DNA of 36,524 nt from a virus (lineage: Duplodnaviria; Heunggongvirae; Uroviricota; Caudoviricetes). Positions 1 through 8,830 of this stretch are shown piece after piece. Location of the stretch: IMG/VR virus record IMGVR_UViG_2778261068_000005; one strand, 5' to 3'. The notes beneath the pieces are model-generated. The model was given only the letters and a program-made list of their open reading frames with translations. It searched no databases and was not told where the DNA came from. A program made the position numbers and the translations under genes. Position 1 is the stretch's first letter, and every line of letters starts with the position of its first letter.

Positions 1-1050
1 TTAATCGGGGAGCATATCATTAGCTTCGGTATGCTGTGTGGGCATTGTAGATAATGGATTGTAGTGTAGCGCTGTATTAAGGTGATCCGGTGCAAGATGA
101 GCGTAACGCATTGTCATTTTTATATCGTGATGTCCGAGGATTTTTTGCAAAGCAAGGATATTTCCACCCGACATCATGAAGTGCGCCGCAAACGTATGGC
201 GCAGAACGTGTGTCAGTTGACCGCGAGGGAGCACGATAGACGTTTTTTCCATCACGGATAAAAATTGAAAATAGCAGTCTGTGAAGAAATTGAACCCATC
301 AAGCGCCATGATCTCTTCGTAAAGCTCTTTACTGATAGGGATGCTTCTGTTTTTCTTCCCCTTCGTTCTTACAAAGGTAATTCGGTATTTGGTCACCTGT
401 GATCGGGTAAGGTTTATTGCTTCTCGCCAGCGTGCGCCTGTGCTTAAGCATATCTTGACTACCAGTGCCAGAATTGGGTCCTGACGTTTGTAATCAGCCA
501 GCAATTCAACAATCTGCTCATGGGTAAGCCATGCCATCTCTTTTTCTGCGATGGTGAATTTTCGCATGTTCTCCAGTGGGTTCGGATACGACCATTCGCC
601 CAGGCGGGATAGTTCGCTAAAAACACTACTTAGATAGCTTTGCTCCAGGTTAATAGTGACCGGGCTTGCTCCTTTCTTCCATTTCTCGCTGAAGTAGATC
701 TCTCCTGTCAGGCGTTTATCTCGATAGTGGGCAAACATTTTAGAGGTGAGATCGGTTGCAAGGGGATTGCCAAGAGCGTCAACCATCAACAGCAATTTGT
801 CATAAACATGCTGCCCAGCAGTCAGAGATTTACCATGTAGTTTGAACCATAGCTCAACCACGTCTTTCAATGTCCGACGATCCACTGATTCGCCCAGCCA
901 GGGCTTTGCTTCTATTTCCCCCATGGTGTATCGCTCGAAGGCCAGTGCTTCGCCTTTGGTGGCGAATTGTTTACGCACACGACGCCCATTACGTCCGGCG
1001 GGGTAACATTCGCAAAGCCATTTCCCTGTGGTGAGTTTTCGTACTGCCAT
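1..1050 (-). CDS. int: Tyrosine integrase, P2/186 family; likely start at MAVRKL (ATG 1048-1050), not the upstream extension in the ORF track
   Basis: Translation resembles the 186 Int N-terminus as recalled; C-terminal catalytic region has R..HxxR..Y pattern (VLRHTFAAH, MTMRYAHL); sits at prophage end next to the repressor gene. Confidence 0.9.
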   Translation of the reverse strand: MAVRKLTTGKWLCECYPAGRNGRRVRKQFATKGEALAFERYTMGEIEAKPWLGESVDRRTLKDVVELWFKLHGKSLTAGQHVYDKLLLMVDALGNPLATDLTSKMFAHYRDKRLTGEIYFSEKWKKGASPVTINLEQSYLSSVFSELSRLGEWSYPNPLENMRKFTIAEKEMAWLTHEQIVELLADYKRQDPILALVVKICLSTGARWREAINLTRSQVTKYRITFVRTKGKKNRSIPISKELYEEIMALDGFNFFTDCYFQFLSVMEKTSIVLPRGQLTHVLRHTFAAHFMMSGGNILALQKILGHHDIKMTMRYAHLAPDHLNTALHYNPLSTMPTQHTEANDMLPD

Positions 1051-1236
1051 AAAAAATGCCCTCCAGTAGAGAGCATTTTCACTGTATGTATAACCAGTGT
1101 CAATGTATGAAATCCTACGACCATACATCTCACTGAAGCCATAATGAAGTTGGCTATTTTTTTCTATGTGAGTATGTAACTTTTGCGGTTAGCCTGCGGC
1201 TCATTGTTATATTAGGTGCAGATATAAAAGCAAAGT

Positions 1237-1428
1237 TTATCGTGAGTTTTTAGTACAGATTTTTTTGGATTTACTAATAGTTCCATCATTGCAAACAAAT
1301 TTTCCATCGGAGGTACAGTGAGAGACACCTCCCTTTTTCCCAGAACAAGGATAATTTTTAGCATAGGTAGTTAGTGGGCTTAATAACAAAGAGCATGATA
1401 AAACCACAAAAAATACTTTACCAAGCAT
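1237..1428 (-). CDS. Small Cys-rich secreted protein or lipoprotein (63 aa), cargo between int and cI
   Basis: Hydrophobic N-terminal signal peptide with possible lipobox VLSC; 6 Cys in mature part; strong RBS GGGAGGAA upstream on minus strand; AT-rich. Confidence 0.6.
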
Positions 1429-1443: not shown

Positions 1444-2019
1444 TTATCTAACATATTTAACTGTTAAACTTATAATTTTCCCAATTATTTCAACATCTTC
1501 TATCTTGCACTCGAAGGCTCTGTTTCCACCTTCAACGAAGATTCTTCCACCGGGTAAACGAGTAATGTCGCGGATTGTTATCTCGCCATCAATACTTATT
1601 ACCCATTTACCATCACGTATATCATCAAATTCTTTATCACAAATAAATTCAGAATCGTTATCTGTGATGACAAAAGGTTTTTTAAACGTAGAGGGTAGAA
1701 ATCCCTTATCAAAAATATAAAAACCGTCTTCACGTAAGGCACCATTAGATAATACATATTTAGCAACTTCCATAGTATTTGTATTACCTGAAGTTTGCTT
1801 TGAACCCTGTCCGGTTGTGAGCCAATTAAGCGAGGTGCCCGTTTCAAGGGCGCACTGGATTACCCATTCTGCTGGGAATGAGTCACGCATGTAGCGTGTG
1901 GCGAGTGTACTTTTAGAGATTCCTAAATGATCGCACAACGCCTGTCGAGTTTTGAATCCATAAGCTTCTACCATGCGCTCTATAGCGCCTCGTCCGCCTT
2001 TCTCCAAATTCATGGTCAC
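1444..2019 (-). CDS. cI: 186-type CI immunity repressor (HTH N-terminal domain)
   Basis: HTH-like segment LCDHLGISKSTLATRYMRD; position between int and a divergent apl/cII operon; resemblance to 186 CI. Confidence 0.8.
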   Translation of the reverse strand: MTMNLEKGGRGAIERMVEAYGFKTRQALCDHLGISKSTLATRYMRDSFPAEWVIQCALETGTSLNWLTTGQGSKQTSGNTNTMEVAKYVLSNGALREDGFYIFDKGFLPSTFKKPFVITDNDSEFICDKEFDDIRDGKWVISIDGEITIRDITRLPGGRIFVEGGNRAFECKIEDVEIIGKIISLTVKYVR

Positions 2020-3943: not shown

Positions 3944-4797
3944 GCACCATCCTGAAATGGGCGGGAAATAAAACCGCCGTAATGTCCGAACTGAAAAAAC
4001 ATCTTCCAGCTGGCCCGCGACTGGTTGAACCTTTCGCGGGTTCCTGTGCTGTGATGATGGAGACGGATTATCCCAGCTATCTGGTTGCGGATATTAATCC
4101 TGATTTAATCAACCTCTATAAAAAGGTTGCCGCTGATTGTGAATCGTTTATATCTCGCGCCAGAGTTTTATTTAAGGAAGCAAACAGGGAGGTGGCTTAT
4201 TACAACATAAGGCAGGAGTTTAATTACTCAACTGAAATTACTGATTTCATGAAAGCGGTATATTTCCTGTATCTCAATCGTCACGGTTACCGTGGGTTAT
4301 GTCGCTATAACAAGAGCGGGCATTTCAACATTCCCTACGGTAATTATAAAAATCCGTATTTCCCTGAAAAAGAAATTCGCGCATTTGCAGAGAAAGCCCA
4401 GCGAGCAACGTTTATCTGCGCCAGCTTTGATGAAACGCTGGCGATGCTGCAGGTGGGGGATGTGGTGTATTGCGATCCGCCTTATGACGGTACGTTTTCC
4501 GGTTATCACACTGACGGCTTCACTGAAGATGACCAGTATCACCTGGCATCCGTTCTTGAACATCGGTCATCAGAAGGACATCCCGTCATTGTTTCTAACA
4601 GTGACACATCCCTGATCCGTTCGCTGTATCGCAATTTTACTCACCACTACATCAAGGCAAAACGCAGCATCGGTGTGGCAGCTGGTGATAGTAAATCTGC
4701 AACAGAAATCATTGCTGTTTCCGGGGCGCGCTGCTGGGTGGGATTTGATCCTTCGCGTGGCGTAGATAGTTCTGCTGTGTACGAGGTGCGTGTATGA
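3940..4797 (+). CDS. dam: DNA adenine methyltransferase (Dam-like, N6-adenine MTase)
   Basis: N-terminal LKWAGNK and FAGS motif, catalytic DPPY motif; close to E. coli Dam over its length; start overlaps stop of upstream gene. Confidence 0.9.
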
Positions 4798-6992
4798 GTC
4801 ATGACGATATGAGCAACTCTAGCGGCTTTAACGAGGCCGCTGCATCATTTTCATGGAACGGCCCGAAAAAGGCCATTAACCCTTATCTGGACCCGGCGGA
4901 AGTTGCGCCGGAGTCTGCACTTTCAAACCTGATCACTCTGTATGTTGCCGATAACGAGCAGGAACAACTGCGCCGCGAGGCACTGAGTGAGCAGGTCTGG
5001 GAGCGTTATTTCTTTAATGAATCCCGTGATCCTGTCCAGCGCGAAATGGAGCAGGATAAGCTCATTAGCCGGGCAAAGCTGGCGCATGAGCAGCAGCGTT
5101 TTAATCCAGACATGGTCATTCTGGCTGACGTCAACGCCCAGCCTTCCCATATCAGCAAGCCGCTGATGCAACGTATTGAATACTTCAGCAGCTTGGGCAG
5201 GCCAAAGGCTTATTCCCGCTATTTGCGTGAGACGATTAAGCCATGTCTGGAACGACTGGAGCATGTACGCGACAGTCAGCTATCCACTTCTTTTCGCTTT
5301 ATGGCAAGCCATGAAGGGCTGGACGGCCTGCTGATCCTGCCTGAAATGAGTCAGGATCAGGTGAAACGCCTGTCTACCCTTGTCGCTGCGCATATGAGCA
5401 TGTGTCTTGATGCCGCTTGTGGTGATTTGTACGCCACCGATGATGTTAAGCCAGAAGAAATCCGCAAGACATGGGAAAAGGTGGCAGCGGAAACCCTACG
5501 TTTGGATGTCATCCCGCCTGCGTTTGAGCAACTCCGTCGGAAAAGAAACCGCCGTAAACCAGTGCCCTATGAACTCATTCCGGGCTCGCTGGCGCGTATG
5601 CTGTGCGCCGACTGGTGGTATCGGAAATTGTGGAAGATGCGTTGCGAATGGCGGGAAGAGCAGTTGCGTGCTGTCTGCCTGGTCAGCAAAAAAGCATCTC
5701 CCTATGTCAGCTATGAAGCTGTGATGCATAAACGTGAGCAGCGCCGTAAGTCGCTGGAGTTTTTCCGTTCTCATGAACTGGTGAACGAAGACGGAGACGC
5801 GCTGGATATGGAAGATGTGGTAAACGCCAGCTGCAGCAACCCGGCGCATCGCCGCAATGAGATGATGGCCTGTGTTAAAGGTCTGGAGCTTATCGCGGAA
5901 ATGCGCGGTGACTGCGCCGTTTTCTACACCATTACCTGTCCGTCACGTTTCCATTCCACGCTCAATAACGGCAGACCCAACCCGACCTGGAAAAACGCGA
6001 CGGTAAGACAAAGCAGCGATTATTTGGTCGGTATGTTTGCTGCATTTCGTAAGGCGATGCACAAAGCCGGGTTGCGCTGGTATGGTGTGCGGGTGGCTGA
6101 GCCGCATCACGACGGCACAGTTCACTGGCACCTGTTGTGTTTCATGCGCAAAAAAGACCGCCGCGCCATTACTGCATTGTTGCGTAAGTTTGCTATCCGT
6201 GAAGACCGCGAGGAGCTGGGCAATAACACGGGGCCGCGCTTTAAGTCTGAGCTGATTAACCCGCGCAAAGGAACGCCGACAAGCTACATAGCGAAATACA
6301 TCAGTAAGAACATTGACGGGCGTGGTCTGGCTGGCGAGATCAGCAAGGAAACGGGTAAATCTCTTCGTGATAACGCTGAATACGTGAATGCCTGGGCGTC
6401 TTTGCATCGTGTTCAGCAATTCCGCTTCTTTGGTATTCCGGGGCGTCAGGCTTACCGTGAACTGCGATTGCTGGCTGGTCAGGCGGCAAGGCAGCAGGGT
6501 GACAAAAAAGCAGGTGTGCCGGTACTGGATAACCCGCGCCTTGATGCCATTCTGGCTGCTGCTGATGCTGGTTGTTTTGCCACCTATATCATGAAGCAGG
6601 GAGGTGTACTGGTTCCCCGTAAATATCACCTCATCAGAACCGCTTATGAAATTAACGAAGAGCCGACCGCCTATGGCGATCACGGTATTCGTATTTATGG
6701 CATCTGGTCACCCATTGCAGAGGGCAAGATCTGCACTCATGCAGTGAAGTGGAAAATGGTTCGTAAGGCCGTTGACGTTCAGGAGGCGGCAGCCGACCAG
6801 GGCGCTTGCGCCCCTTGGACTCGTGGCAATAACTGTCCCCTTGCTGAAAATTGGAACCAACAAGGGAAAGACAAATCAGCTGATGGGGACTCCAGAACGG
6901 ATATTACCCGTATGAATGACAAGGAGTTGCACGATTACCTGCACAGTATGAGCAAAAAAGAGCGCCGGGAACTGGCTGCAAGGTTACGCTAG
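4794..6992 (+). CDS. A: Replication initiation protein A (rolling-circle nickase, gpA/RepA)
   Basis: 732 aa; HUH-like motif VHWHLL; Tyr-containing motif YIAKYISK; start ATGA overlaps dam stop. Confidence 0.9.
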
Positions 6993-7208
6993 GTGAAACC
7001 GAAACGGCGTAAAGACTACAAACAGCGAATTACAGACCATCAGCGACAGCAGCTCGTCTATGAACTGAAGTCCAGGGGATTTGATGGCAGCGAGAAAGAA
7101 GTCGATTTGCTCCTTCGCGGCGGCAGTATTCCGTCAGGAGCAGGCCTGCGTATCTTCTATCGGAACCAGCGTCTGAAGGAAGATGATAAGTGGCGGAACC
7201 TGTATTAA
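6993..7208 (+). CDS. Hypothetical small basic protein (GTG start)
   Basis: ORF abutting A stop (TAGGTG); no recognised motif. Confidence 0.3.
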
Positions 7209-7360: not shown

Positions 7361-7549
7361 ATGCAGGACTATTTTTTGGAGTCTTTGAAGCTTCAGCGCA
7401 TTGATTTTTTTCTTAAGCTTGTAGCGGCTAGTGAGTGTAGTGATGAAGAGAAGGGGCTGGCTCTGCAGTGGGTTTCTGAATTGACTGATGAACTTATGGC
7501 AAAAATCAGAAGCCACGAATACAACCGCTCAATGGATGTCATCAGCTGA
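7361..7549 (+). CDS. Putative Tum-like antirepressor (62 aa)
   Basis: First gene downstream of LexA box with RBS AGGAGG; position matches the 186 tum operon; sequence not independently recognised. Confidence 0.45.
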   Translation: MQDYFLESLKLQRIDFFLKLVAASECSDEEKGLALQWVSELTDELMAKIRSHEYNRSMDVIS

Positions 7550-7559
7550 GGTGACTTTT

Positions 7560-7793
7560 ATGCGCATTGAAATAATGATCGATAAAGAGCAGAAGATTAG
7601 CCAGTCTACCCTGGACGCCCTTGAATCCGAGCTTTACCGCAATCTGCGCCCCCTGTATCCCAAAACGGTAATTCGCATTCGCAAAGGTAGCTCTAACGGT
7701 GTGGAACTAACCGGACTGCAACTGGATGAAGAAAGAAAACAAGTGATGAAAATTATGCAGAAGGTGTGGGAGGACGACAGCTGGCTGCATTAA
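7560..7793 (+). CDS. DinI-family protein
   Basis: 77 aa MRIEIMIDKEQ...VWEDDSWL matches the DinI pattern (MRIEV...WESADDWF); RBS GAGGTGA upstream. Confidence 0.8.
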   Translation: MRIEIMIDKEQKISQSTLDALESELYRNLRPLYPKTVIRIRKGSSNGVELTGLQLDEERKQVMKIMQKVWEDDSWLH

Positions 7794-7800
7794 GAAACGT

Positions 7801-7832
7801 TGCCCCCAGGAGGATTCATTCTGATGGGGGCT
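7801..7832 (+). terminator. Hairpin after the dinI-like gene (possible intrinsic terminator)
   Basis: GCCCCCA...TGGGGGC 7-bp GC stem, followed by TAGTTTGGG (weak U tract). Confidence 0.3.
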
Positions 7833-7985
7833 AGTTTGGGCAATGAGTGAAATAAGGCGTAAGGTGGGCGGTTATTTTGATAAGTGATCGTCCGCTTTGT
7901 GTCAGAAGCAGAAGTGGGAGTGTCTGAGACTCTCTAAAAGTTGATGATTCACTTACAAAACCATTTTCCTGATGAATGCTTACAC

Positions 7986-8321
7986 TTACGAATGATCATT
8001 CTGTTTAGTCTTCATGAGAAAATCCCGAATCTTTGCCAAGTTTGAATTTTCGGGGATTGAATCCATGTACGGATCACGCTCAAACACTAATTGCTCAGAT
8101 TCAACGAAAGCCTGCCACTCTACTGGGTCTAGCTCAAATCCCATTGCTGTCATATCACTTTCATCTTCCCCCTCGATCCAGTGGACTAAATAAAACAATT
8201 CATCATCAGGAGAATCATCCTCACCATCAACAATATCAACATCGGTTACAGTGATACGTAGGGTGGGATCGATTTTTGAGACATAAATTCCTAACTGTGG
8301 TATAGGGGGAATATTGTTCAT
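7986..8321 (-). CDS. Highly acidic 111-aa protein; candidate DNA-mimic/anti-defence or immunity protein
   Basis: RBS AAGGAG before ATG; many Asp/Glu clusters (GEDDSPDDE, EGEDESD); between tum module and cos. Confidence 0.6.
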   Translation of the reverse strand: MNNIPPIPQLGIYVSKIDPTLRITVTDVDIVDGEDDSPDDELFYLVHWIEGEDESDMTAMGFELDPVEWQAFVESEQLVFERDPYMDSIPENSNLAKIRDFLMKTKQNDHS

Positions 8322-8700
8322 GGAAACTCCTTTTATTGGTGCTTGCTATTTGAATAAAAATACGCCAAACAGAGTGTTAACTGTGAATATGGAAAGAATC
8401 GTTGTAAGTACCCCGCTTAGGTGTCCCATTCTATTTTAGAGGTTCTCGTGCATATGGATTATGTTATCTGAAAGCTAACTTCCGCTTCCCGTTCACAGCG
8501 AACATTCATCTTTGTAAACCCGTATGATCCGTTTTTCAAGTGGCCATTCAGATACGGATTTTCACTTCCTTGACAGTGCATGACTATGCTGCATGAAATC
8601 GCATGATCGATTGAGGATCGTCTTTGCTCAGATCCGCCAGAACTGGCGGGCTTTTGCTCATGTCATGCATGTGCATGAAAACCACTGCATAAAGCGGGCA

Positions 8701-8719
8701 GGCGTGGCGGGGATACGAG
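8701..8719. other. Candidate cos site (cohesive end)
   Basis: GGCGTGGCGGGGATACGAG; first 13 nt identical to the 186/P2 cohesive-end sequence as recalled (GGCGTGGCGGGGAAAGCAT / GGCGAGGCGGGGAAAGCAC); lies in a 500-bp noncoding region. Confidence 0.5.
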
Positions 8720-8830
8720 CGCGCGCTGTATGCCTGAAGTGGCTAAAATAGTATCTGTCATAGGTACAACTTAGTGTAGTATCATCCATATAATCCATTG
8801 AAATATAATCGACTCTCATTAGAGGTGGTG

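Follow-up and report, generated by a model that had tools for sequence, protein, structure and literature searches.

We analysed a 36,524-nucleotide stretch of viral DNA, IMG/VR record IMGVR_UViG_2778261068_000005 (hereafter the window), which represents a 186/P2-like prophage. A gene on its minus strand at 7986..8321, next to the cohesive-end site cos, encodes a strongly acidic protein of 111 amino acids that belongs to DUF8087, a catalogued family without a characterised member. The gene is an independent single-gene module, carried as accessory ('moron') cargo in a variable slot of the prophage. Relics of two flanking genes show that it originated in the lysogenic operon of related prophages, from which it was excised without its membrane partner. 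The original prediction had proposed that the protein is a DNA mimic or an anti-defence factor, or alternatively an immunity or antitoxin partner. DUF8087 belongs to no known mimic, defence or toxin-antitoxin family, and we tentatively favour a function exerted in the resident state of the element.

The open reading frame (ORF) starts with ATG and is a genuine protein-coding gene, not a chance ORF. This follows from a match to the phrog_17127 profile over the full length (positions 1-111 of 111, E = 2e-70), from the 61 homologous clusters that a first search recovered from a large protein collection, and from the way the sequence has diverged. Compared with copies in other contexts, identity amounts to 93-96% at codon positions 1 and 2 and to 78-84% at position 3, and pairwise ratios of nonsynonymous to synonymous substitution rates (dN/dS, NG86) are 0.10-0.22. 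In viral contigs, 34 of 35 copies are intact. The good ribosome-binding site named in the original prediction, AAGGAG, is present 5 nt upstream of the ATG at 8321-8319, and an A/G-rich stretch ahead of the start codon is kept in all eight aligned upstream regions.

The claim of strong acidity was borne out. With 26 aspartate and glutamate residues and 7 lysine and arginine residues, the protein has a net charge of -19 and an isoelectric point (pI) of 4.05. All four clusters quoted from the sequence are found in it: GEDDSPDDE (residues 33-41), EGEDESDM (50-57), DPVEW (65-69) and ESEQ (74-77). The net charge per residue is -0.171, compared with a mean of 0.001 +/- 0.045 among the 37 further ORFs of the window that were taken as genes; none of these is as acidic as DUF8087. 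The acidity is a property of the whole family: across 39 homologues, with identity down to 27%, net charge and pI have medians of -15 and 4.06. The region of the cargo gene is also AT-rich, with a G+C content of 40% against 51% for the whole window.

The predicted location was confirmed as well. DUF8087 is flanked by gpA and cos, within the gpA-gpQ interval, and is encoded on the other strand than the early operon (Table 1). In the P2 reference genome this interval is occupied by old and tin, and a DprA/PRTase system taken from it has been validated as defence (Rousset et al. 2022, PMC9122126). We located cos by alignment with the record of Salmonella phage SEN8, which aligns from window base 8701 and whose bases 1-19 are annotated as putative cos; the motif, GGCGTGGCGGGGATACGAG, occurs at the equivalent place in 27 viral contigs. 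The start codon of DUF8087 is 380 bp from the start of cos. Because cos begins at this point, DUF8087 is the last gene at the right end of the linear virion genome, and it is transcribed inward from that end. Backbone homology to SEN8 and to an E. coli prophage with an empty slot (L032) ends at 7803 and restarts at 8575-8576, which defines an insert of 771 bp where the empty-slot prophage has 68 bp. The gene and the DinI-like gene are convergent across a G+C-rich hairpin that we noticed by eye, a candidate bidirectional terminator; a terminator scan left this hairpin unreported, its T-run being too short.

Prophages that share the flanking backbone differ in the content of this slot. The backbone region is present in approximately 1328 of 5426 complete E. 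coli genomes and the DUF8087 gene in 214 of the 5426, that is, in about 16% of the genomes that bear the backbone. Other occupants of the slot between the DinI-like gene and cos, encoded on the same strand, are an RNase A-like toxin with a contact-dependent inhibition (CDI) immunity gene in E. coli C21 and a 'DNA binding protein' in SEN8. Beyond cos, the interval up to Q in the window holds a gene for a 342-aa protein and an HNH gene. Elsewhere the same interval, beside DUF8087 genes of 99-100% identity, holds retron St85/Ec86, retron Ec67, PIN, TIR, DUF262, an ATP-dependent nuclease or a P-loop ATPase. At least eight distinct cargoes, or none, thus accompany the gene, and in one viral contig (L049) the interval beside it is almost empty.

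Two candidate associations were considered and rejected. The 342-aa/HNH cargo was ruled out as a partner, since at least seven other cargoes, or none, are found beside the identical gene, and since SEN8 and the E. coli C21 lineage have the cargo but not DUF8087. A specific link to retrons was also rejected: many carriers have St85/Ec86 or Ec67, yet cos lies between the two genes and other cargoes are frequent. A large share of the carriers are duplicate E. coli B laboratory strains, and we set the link down as a coincidence of lineage.

The combination of DUF8087 with the 342-aa/HNH cargo seen in the window (7804-10900) is found in none of the 5426 complete E. coli genomes; in the genomes that have this cargo, the slot between the DinI-like gene and cos holds the RNase A-like toxin and the CDI immunity gene. 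This indicates that the two sides of cos recombine independently. Because the cargo beside DUF8087 varies, and because the 342-aa/HNH cargo occurs without it, DUF8087 is a module of its own.

The history of the cassette is recorded in the remnants that border the gene. In Klebsiella aerogenes, in Buttiauxella, in a metagenomic prophage and in five viral contigs, the genes cI, Flk_N-like, DUF8087 and int follow one another on one strand. The Flk_N-like product is a tail-anchored membrane protein of approximately 210 aa (Pfam Flk_N, phrog_5825). In the five viral contigs DUF8087 is 54-77% identical and this partner 40-100% identical, and in L012-14 and L028 the stop codon of DUF8087 overlaps the start of int. 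The window retains traces of both neighbours. Upstream of DUF8087, a 27-codon hydrophobic mini-ORF, reading MGHLSGVLTTILSIFTVNTLFGVFLFK and then a stop codon, corresponds to the 3' end of the Flk_N-like gene, including its C-terminal membrane anchor; in a tblastx comparison, window positions 8390..7986 align, in the same reading frame, with the terminal part of the Flk_N-like gene in L064 (ILLAGILLGAVLFK, followed by a stop codon) and continue into DUF8087. The mini-ORF is free of indels in seven contexts, and its ATG is lost in L016. Downstream, a relic of the 5' end of the integrase gene overlaps the last 14 nt of the DUF8087 coding sequence. A 2-nt insertion breaks its frame, and it translates as MIIRKCKHSSGKW, compared with MTIRKHPSGKW in L056. 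The cassette with both relics is the form that circulates in islands and in integrative and conjugative elements (ICEs).

Both relics match the order cI, membrane protein, DUF8087, int, and the cassette is a transplant from the cI-int lysogenic operon of related prophages. Since the two flanking genes have been destroyed while DUF8087 is intact and under purifying selection (dN/dS 0.12-0.22 at dS 0.27-0.41 for partner-less copies in different contexts), the protein works without its former membrane partner. We read the mini-ORF as what remains of the membrane anchor that the lost partner gene encoded; less probably, it might encode a small membrane peptide. Its interpretation as a small toxin was not supported, as it is without a usable Shine-Dalgarno sequence and has lost its ATG in Morganella. 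We likewise rejected an obligate partnership with the Flk_N-like protein: every cI-int context includes it, yet the two are separable. Phage 520873 has the Flk_N-like protein, while a tblastn search of the phage collection with DUF8087 found nothing.

Flk_N-like genes were located at 5343-5990 in L011, 6342-6971 in L028 and 7341-7970 in L010. The N-terminus of the Flk_N-like protein repeats a motif, GNRxAGRDxNEN, from the C-terminus of the preceding CI repressor. In the window itself, the place between CI and int that Flk_N-like and DUF8087 occupy in related prophages holds a 63-aa ORF (1237-1428, minus strand) with a signal-peptide-like N-terminus and no Pfam match.

Approximately 170 bp upstream of DUF8087, aligned from eight contexts, move with the gene into every partner-less context and presumably carry its promoter. 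Identity in this block is 82-84%, no higher than at third codon positions and hence at the neutral rate. A riboswitch, a small RNA and a structured leader were ruled out by this neutral-rate identity, by the lack of a meaningful Rfam match to the block and by its RNA folding z-score of 0.42 against shuffled sequence. That the block is the fossil 3' end of a gene explains why it moves with DUF8087 while evolving neutrally and forming no structured RNA.

Outside P2-like phages, copies of 85-90% identity always lie in accessory regions rich in defence genes. DUF8087 adjoins a 1589-aa TmtA/MkoA-like helicase in an E. coli island flanked by insertion sequences, a DUF4365-TPR protein in a Lonsdalea ICE, full-length PD-T7-1 (E = 1e-168) in a Proteus island, and an Mrr-like protein with Imm42 in a Symbiopectobacterium element; in a Morganella island it follows a helicase-PLD protein. 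The gene is retained in decaying prophages: the remnant in BL21, the window prophage with its gpA amber codon and frameshifted HNH gene, and a lone copy beside pgsA-uvrC in Pantoea. When 50,697 phage records were searched with tblastn, none yielded a relative; among 72,556 plasmids, a single one did. Altogether, at least five kinds of element in several genera preserve DUF8087.

More distant members, recovered by profile search, share 30-45% identity, are often 70-100 aa long, and extend the family across Enterobacterales and beyond. One distant branch, with a member in Nitrosospira, has a basic N-terminal extension (MGQAKLRGSKEERIAQ...). In this branch DUF8087 lies between the integrase gene and a divergent AlpA-GPA operon of small integrative elements, whose cargo comprises TIR-NLR, BglII restriction-modification (R-M) and Gabija systems. 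Another metagenomic element has the same AlpA-GPA layout with a DUF8087 protein that is without the basic extension. Two of the elements, L021 and L024 (Nitrosospira and metagenome), encode a P4-type integrase, AlpA and a GPA-type replication protein, with either TIR-NLR or BglII R-M and Gabija as cargo; they may be satellite-like elements with a defence hotspot of their own.

In three P2-like viral contigs, the E. coli island, the Lonsdalea ICE and the Proteus island, a gene approximately 200 bp downstream of DUF8087 encodes a 127-aa protein (phrog_26730) with one hydrophobic N-terminal segment. The window and most loci do not have it, and we therefore ruled out that it is an obligate partner. 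It shows no relationship to the Flk_N-like protein.

The protein of the window is 100% identical to RefSeq WP_001059831, named 'hypothetical protein' in older and 'DUF8087 domain-containing protein' in newer releases. The family assignment (PF26332) is precomputed on a cluster representative of 98% identity and on nearly all homologues. Our own scan at E <= 0.1 used a Pfam copy without the PF26332 model and returned no family; there was no match in NCBIfam, and none of the families of PADLOC-DB v2 matched at E <= 0.1. E. coli B, REL606 and the BL21(DE3) family have a gene of 100% identity, located in a P2-like prophage remnant that also bears retron Eco1/Ec86. Neither DUF8087 nor WP_001059831 is mentioned in the literature that we searched, and the P2-hotspot table of Rousset et al. 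2022 (PMC9122126) gives the gene solely as 'hypothetical', at the BL21 and REL606 loci included.

We modelled the protein with AlphaFold2 from an alignment of 28 sequences (mean predicted local distance difference test (pLDDT) 78.8, predicted template modelling score (pTM) 0.64). The model has strands at residues 11-15, 22-31, 43-50, 61-64 and 78-82, a helix at 66-76, and an amphipathic, basic C-terminal helix at 94-108. The predicted fold is a small five-stranded SH3-like barrel with acidic loops, followed by helices. Fold searches returned small barrels of the SH3/Tudor type, namely DUF1653 (PDB 3be3), FeoA, domain I of EF-P and the Tudor domains of CarD and UvrD, at 5-14% identity. Their scores are at the level expected of any small barrel and none is acidic like DUF8087, so that they allow no functional inference. 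Among the 39 homologues P8, G11 and W69 are invariant, and the most conserved acidic sites are D27, D53, D56, E63, D65 and E68. The acidic loop at 32-40 varies in length and is missing in several homologues. Because this loop varies while the other acidic sites are conserved, the pattern would fit a charged binding face rather than a rigid DNA-like array.

A specific likeness to Ocr, ArdA or DarA, the mimics with which the original prediction suggested comparison, was not supported. Ocr is all-helical and ArdA is an elongated protein of three domains. The modelled barrel with helices belongs to another fold class than Ocr, and with 111 aa, of which approximately 80 form a conserved core, DUF8087 is too small for the three-domain architecture of ArdA. 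None of the 39 family members matched the models of Ocr (T7 gp0.3) at E <= 1, and the family profile matched no PDB sequence at E <= 10. For ArdA there was no Pfam or NCBIfam match and no chain among the structural matches. Ocr, ArdA, Arn, Ugi and anti-CRISPR mimics were absent from the fold-search match lists that we inspected, and the model had no significant match to any solved mimic. DUF8087 shares with Ocr and ArdA a similar size class, a pI near 4, a large negative charge and an occurrence as self-contained single genes on mobile elements. It differs from them in sequence and fold, in the variable length of its acidic loop, in that it stems from a lysogenic operon and not from an early or leading region, and in its scarcity in the phage and plasmid collections.

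These comparisons bear on the possibility that DUF8087 is a counter-defence DNA mimic, which would block a DNA-targeting defence of the host (type I R-M, BREX or CRISPR-Cas) on behalf of the phage or island. Composition alone would be consistent with DNA mimicry as the function: size, pI and charge fall within the range seen for known mimics, and homologues remain acidic even at identities of around 30%. The mobility of the gene fits as well. It moves as a self-contained unit across prophages, ICEs and islands, as anti-CRISPR genes do, lies close to the right cohesive end with inward transcription, and has an ArdB/KlcA-type 'Antirestrict' gene approximately 4 kb away in the Proteus and Morganella islands. 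For CRISPR-Cas as the target, expression in the resident state would be sensible, as it is for prophage anti-CRISPRs; DUF8087 is small, acidic, domain-less and scattered over prophages, ICEs and islands, like the DNA-mimic anti-CRISPRs AcrF2 and AcrIIA4, whose type of activity such expression would suit. It differs from these in that it has no sequence similarity to PDB entries and no significant fold match, and in that no aca-type helix-turn-helix gene adjoins it in E. coli contexts.

Other observations do not fit. DUF8087 resembles neither Ocr, ArdA nor the solved mimics in sequence or fold, and a main acidic loop that is variable or missing in several homologues agrees better with diffuse charge than with a phosphate-like array. 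The ancestral cI-int operon, which we take to be shut off in lytic growth as in 186, would express the protein at the wrong time for anti-restriction. The tblastn searches recovered no relative in the phage collection and one in the plasmid collection, the two settings in which genes of the ArdA and Ocr types usually occur. Finally, a recent survey found anti-defence genes in 28 of 1511 P2-like prophages, all of known types. The cI-int position in divergent relatives, the relics and the scarcity in the phage and plasmid collections lead the context to lean away from an entry-phase anti-restriction role, and we consider the DNA-mimic explanation unlikely.

Service to the resident element, or to its host, is more likely than the disarming of restriction at phage entry. 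We put this forward as a tentative reading, in which our confidence is somewhat short of even: DUF8087 would exclude or interfere with an incoming competitor, or would control a membrane-anchored partner. The ancestral operon and the retention of the gene in decaying prophages suggest that the protein would be made in the resident (lysogenic) state. With neither a catalytic nor a membrane domain, the protein would act stoichiometrically, by binding and holding a positively charged surface of another protein, and this surface would probably be one that binds nucleic acid. The binding face would consist of the conserved acidic residues 50-56 and 63-68 together with the beta2-beta3 loop of variable length.

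An analogue of this arrangement may be seen in exclusion modules that are linked to a repressor, such as lambda cI-rexA-rexB. The ancestral layout of DUF8087 similarly places a membrane protein and a soluble protein in one transcript with the repressor. The analogy concerns layout and not homology, and the membrane partner of DUF8087 differs in being a single-pass tail-anchored protein that is missing from the window. A second comparison is with the cargo of P2 itself. Old is a nuclease/ATPase, and Tin targets the single-stranded-DNA-binding protein of T-even phages. DUF8087 shares with old, tin and other gpA-gpQ cargo (PMC9122126) its interval, its AT-richness, its variability between similar prophages and its occurrence among defence genes, and differs in having no recognisable domain.

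Several points weigh against this reading. A soluble protein of 111 aa without an enzymatic or membrane domain would be unusual as a stand-alone defence, and no PADLOC model describes it. The confidence of the fold model is moderate, with pLDDT values of 41 to 79 among the five models. A sigma-70 scan upstream of the gene found no consensus site; a weak promoter candidate, TTCACA-N19-TATTTT, was noticed by eye only. Small acidic proteins of mobile elements are, as a prior, more often involved in counter-defence than in defence. Moreover, the carriers E. coli B and BL21 are classic permissive hosts of T phages, so that any exclusion activity would have to be narrow or silenced. Among the untested P2-hotspot loci examined by Rousset et al. 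2022 (PMC9122126), three of eight gave defence.

A bolder form of the idea of resident-state service, which we regard as rather unlikely, is that DUF8087 is the founding member of a new class of acidic decoys expressed by resident temperate elements such as P2/186-like prophages, AlpA-GPA islands and ICEs. The decoy would originally have formed a two-gene module with the Ant/KilAC-like membrane protein, co-transcribed with the repressor, and in its free-standing form would trap a DNA-binding protein. If the trapped protein belonged to an invader, this would be a new single-protein exclusion mechanism; if it were an immune effector of the host, the activity would be anti-CRISPR-like.

The repeated association with lysogeny genes also raises the possibility that DUF8087 regulates the life cycle of its own element, by binding a basic DNA-binding or replication protein and thereby tuning the lysis-lysogeny switch or excision. 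Candidate targets would be CI, Apl/Cox, Tum, AlpA, GPA or the KilAC/Ant-like domain of the membrane-anchored partner. Divergent relatives always lie between cI and int, or divergent from the AlpA-GPA operon beside int, and most carrier elements have a GPA-type replication protein. The central region of the Flk_N-like protein encoded upstream resembles the C-terminal part of Ant-type anti-repressors (phrog_245, E = 7e-7), and the copy in the window is convergent with the DinI/Tum-like gene. Carriage by about 16% of backbone-bearing E. coli prophages nevertheless places the gene outside the core switch. Copies of approximately 90% identity persist in islands with no GPA gene and no homologue of the window-type cI or int within 6-8 kb, and these are still under purifying selection. 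We therefore give a regulatory role only a low probability, below that of a DNA mimic.

The alternative of an immunity or antitoxin protein is improbable in our view. Such a protein would act as an orphan against a nuclease toxin, delivered by competitors (through CDI, a type VI secretion system or a bacteriocin) or encoded by a lost partner gene. DUF8087 has the small size and strong acidity that are typical of proteins giving immunity to nuclease toxins. In E. coli C21 the slot is occupied by the RNase A-like toxin and CDI immunity gene, Imm42 adjoins DUF8087 in one ICE, and in Morganella and Proteus there are Hcp or VgrG genes no more than a few kb away. No toxin gene, however, adjoins DUF8087 in any of the contexts that we inspected. 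The recurring neighbours, the 127-aa phrog_26730 protein and the Flk_N-like protein, match no toxin family and are missing from many loci and from the window, and the weak structural match is at noise level.

It would be more improbable still for the gene to be a functionless passenger, that is, a fragment of a lysogeny operon copied along with defence cargo and not yet decayed. The cassette is bounded by broken pieces of two genes, its upstream block evolves at the neutral rate and a consensus promoter was not found, all of which would be expected of such a fragment. Against this, partner-less copies show dN/dS of 0.10-0.22 at dS of up to 0.4, with all but one of the 35 viral-contig copies intact. 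The ORF has survived while the genes on both sides were destroyed, and it has been preserved in several kinds of element and several genera.

It is established that the cos-proximal hotspot of P2-like prophages can yield new immune systems, and DUF8087, present in approximately 4% of complete E. coli genomes, is among its commoner uncharacterised residents. Its presence beside retron Eco1 in E. coli B and in BL21(DE3), the most used host for protein expression, provides easy experimental access. The relics offer a concrete example of a single gene excised from a lysogeny operon and circulating under selection among hotspots, ICEs and defence islands. If DUF8087 does act as a decoy for a DNA-binding protein, it would represent a new fold for that class, regardless of the side that benefits. 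Should it turn out to be inert, acidic composition alone would be a poor predictor of DNA mimicry.

Table 1. Coordinates of the DUF8087 region and of the prophage backbone in the window, and of the companion gene in other loci (feature, position, strand, remarks)
int	1-1128	-	prophage window
186-type CI	1444-2019	-	Pfam Phage_CI_repr
Early operon	runs to 7793	+	closes with gpA, then the DinI/Tum-like gene
gpA replication gene	4794-6992 (/7208)	+	early operon
DinI/Tum-like gene	7560..7793	+	Pfam DinI, E = 1.2e-22; last backbone gene, left border of the slot
G+C-rich hairpin GCCCCCA..TGGGGGC	7802..7831	.	seen by eye, between the convergent DinI-like gene and DUF8087
Variable insert of the DinI-cos slot, whole cassette	7804..8574	.	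771 bp; break in backbone homology
Relic of integrase 5' end	7950..7999	-	blastn to the intact int start of L028 and the int fragment of L056
DUF8087 coding sequence	7986..8321	-	ORF list and translation; phrog_17127 match; WP_001059831 identity; dN/dS 0.10-0.22
Upstream block	8322..8492	-	about 170 bp; alignment of eight contexts; moves with the gene into every partner-less context
Shine-Dalgarno sequence AAGGAG	8327..8332	-	direct sequence reading; 5 nt upstream of the ATG
Relic of Flk_N-like gene 3' end (C-terminal membrane anchor)	8346..8429	-	tblastx
cos cohesive-end sequence	8701..8719	+	SEN8 record alignment starts at 8701
Portal gene Q	10911-11942	-	right side of the gpA-gpQ interval
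127-aa phrog_26730 gene	L056-L058 6538-6918; L002 6538-6921; L008, L009 8538-8921		

Some features of the neighbouring genes deserve mention. The 342-aa protein of the interval between cos and Q (8798-9826, plus strand; phrog_19461) has no Pfam, NCBIfam or PADLOC match. The HNH endonuclease gene that follows it (9883-10853, minus strand) is split into ORFs of 98 and 208 aa by a 1-nt deletion, as judged against SEN8, in which the 319-aa gene is intact; the annotation of E. coli C21 shows the same split. This cargo is 91% identical to phage SEN8 at the nucleotide level, and its two genes are a candidate defence pair.

At the end of the early operon, gpA has an in-frame amber codon, TAG, at 6990-6992, where another E. 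coli prophage has CAG. Because of it, the gene for an 804-aa protein (4794-7208, plus strand) reads as 732 aa and a separate 71-aa ORF (6993-7208), and the prophage of the window may be replication-defective. A 62-aa ORF (phrog_698) precedes the DinI-like gene, whose product is identical to a protein named 'DinI-like family protein' in RefSeq. The pair spans 7361-7793 on the plus strand, a region that we take to resemble the LexA-controlled tum region of phage 186. Among the late genes, a gene for a 311-aa FRG-domain protein (19673-20608) is inserted on the opposite, minus strand, and its site looks like a second cargo site of the prophage.

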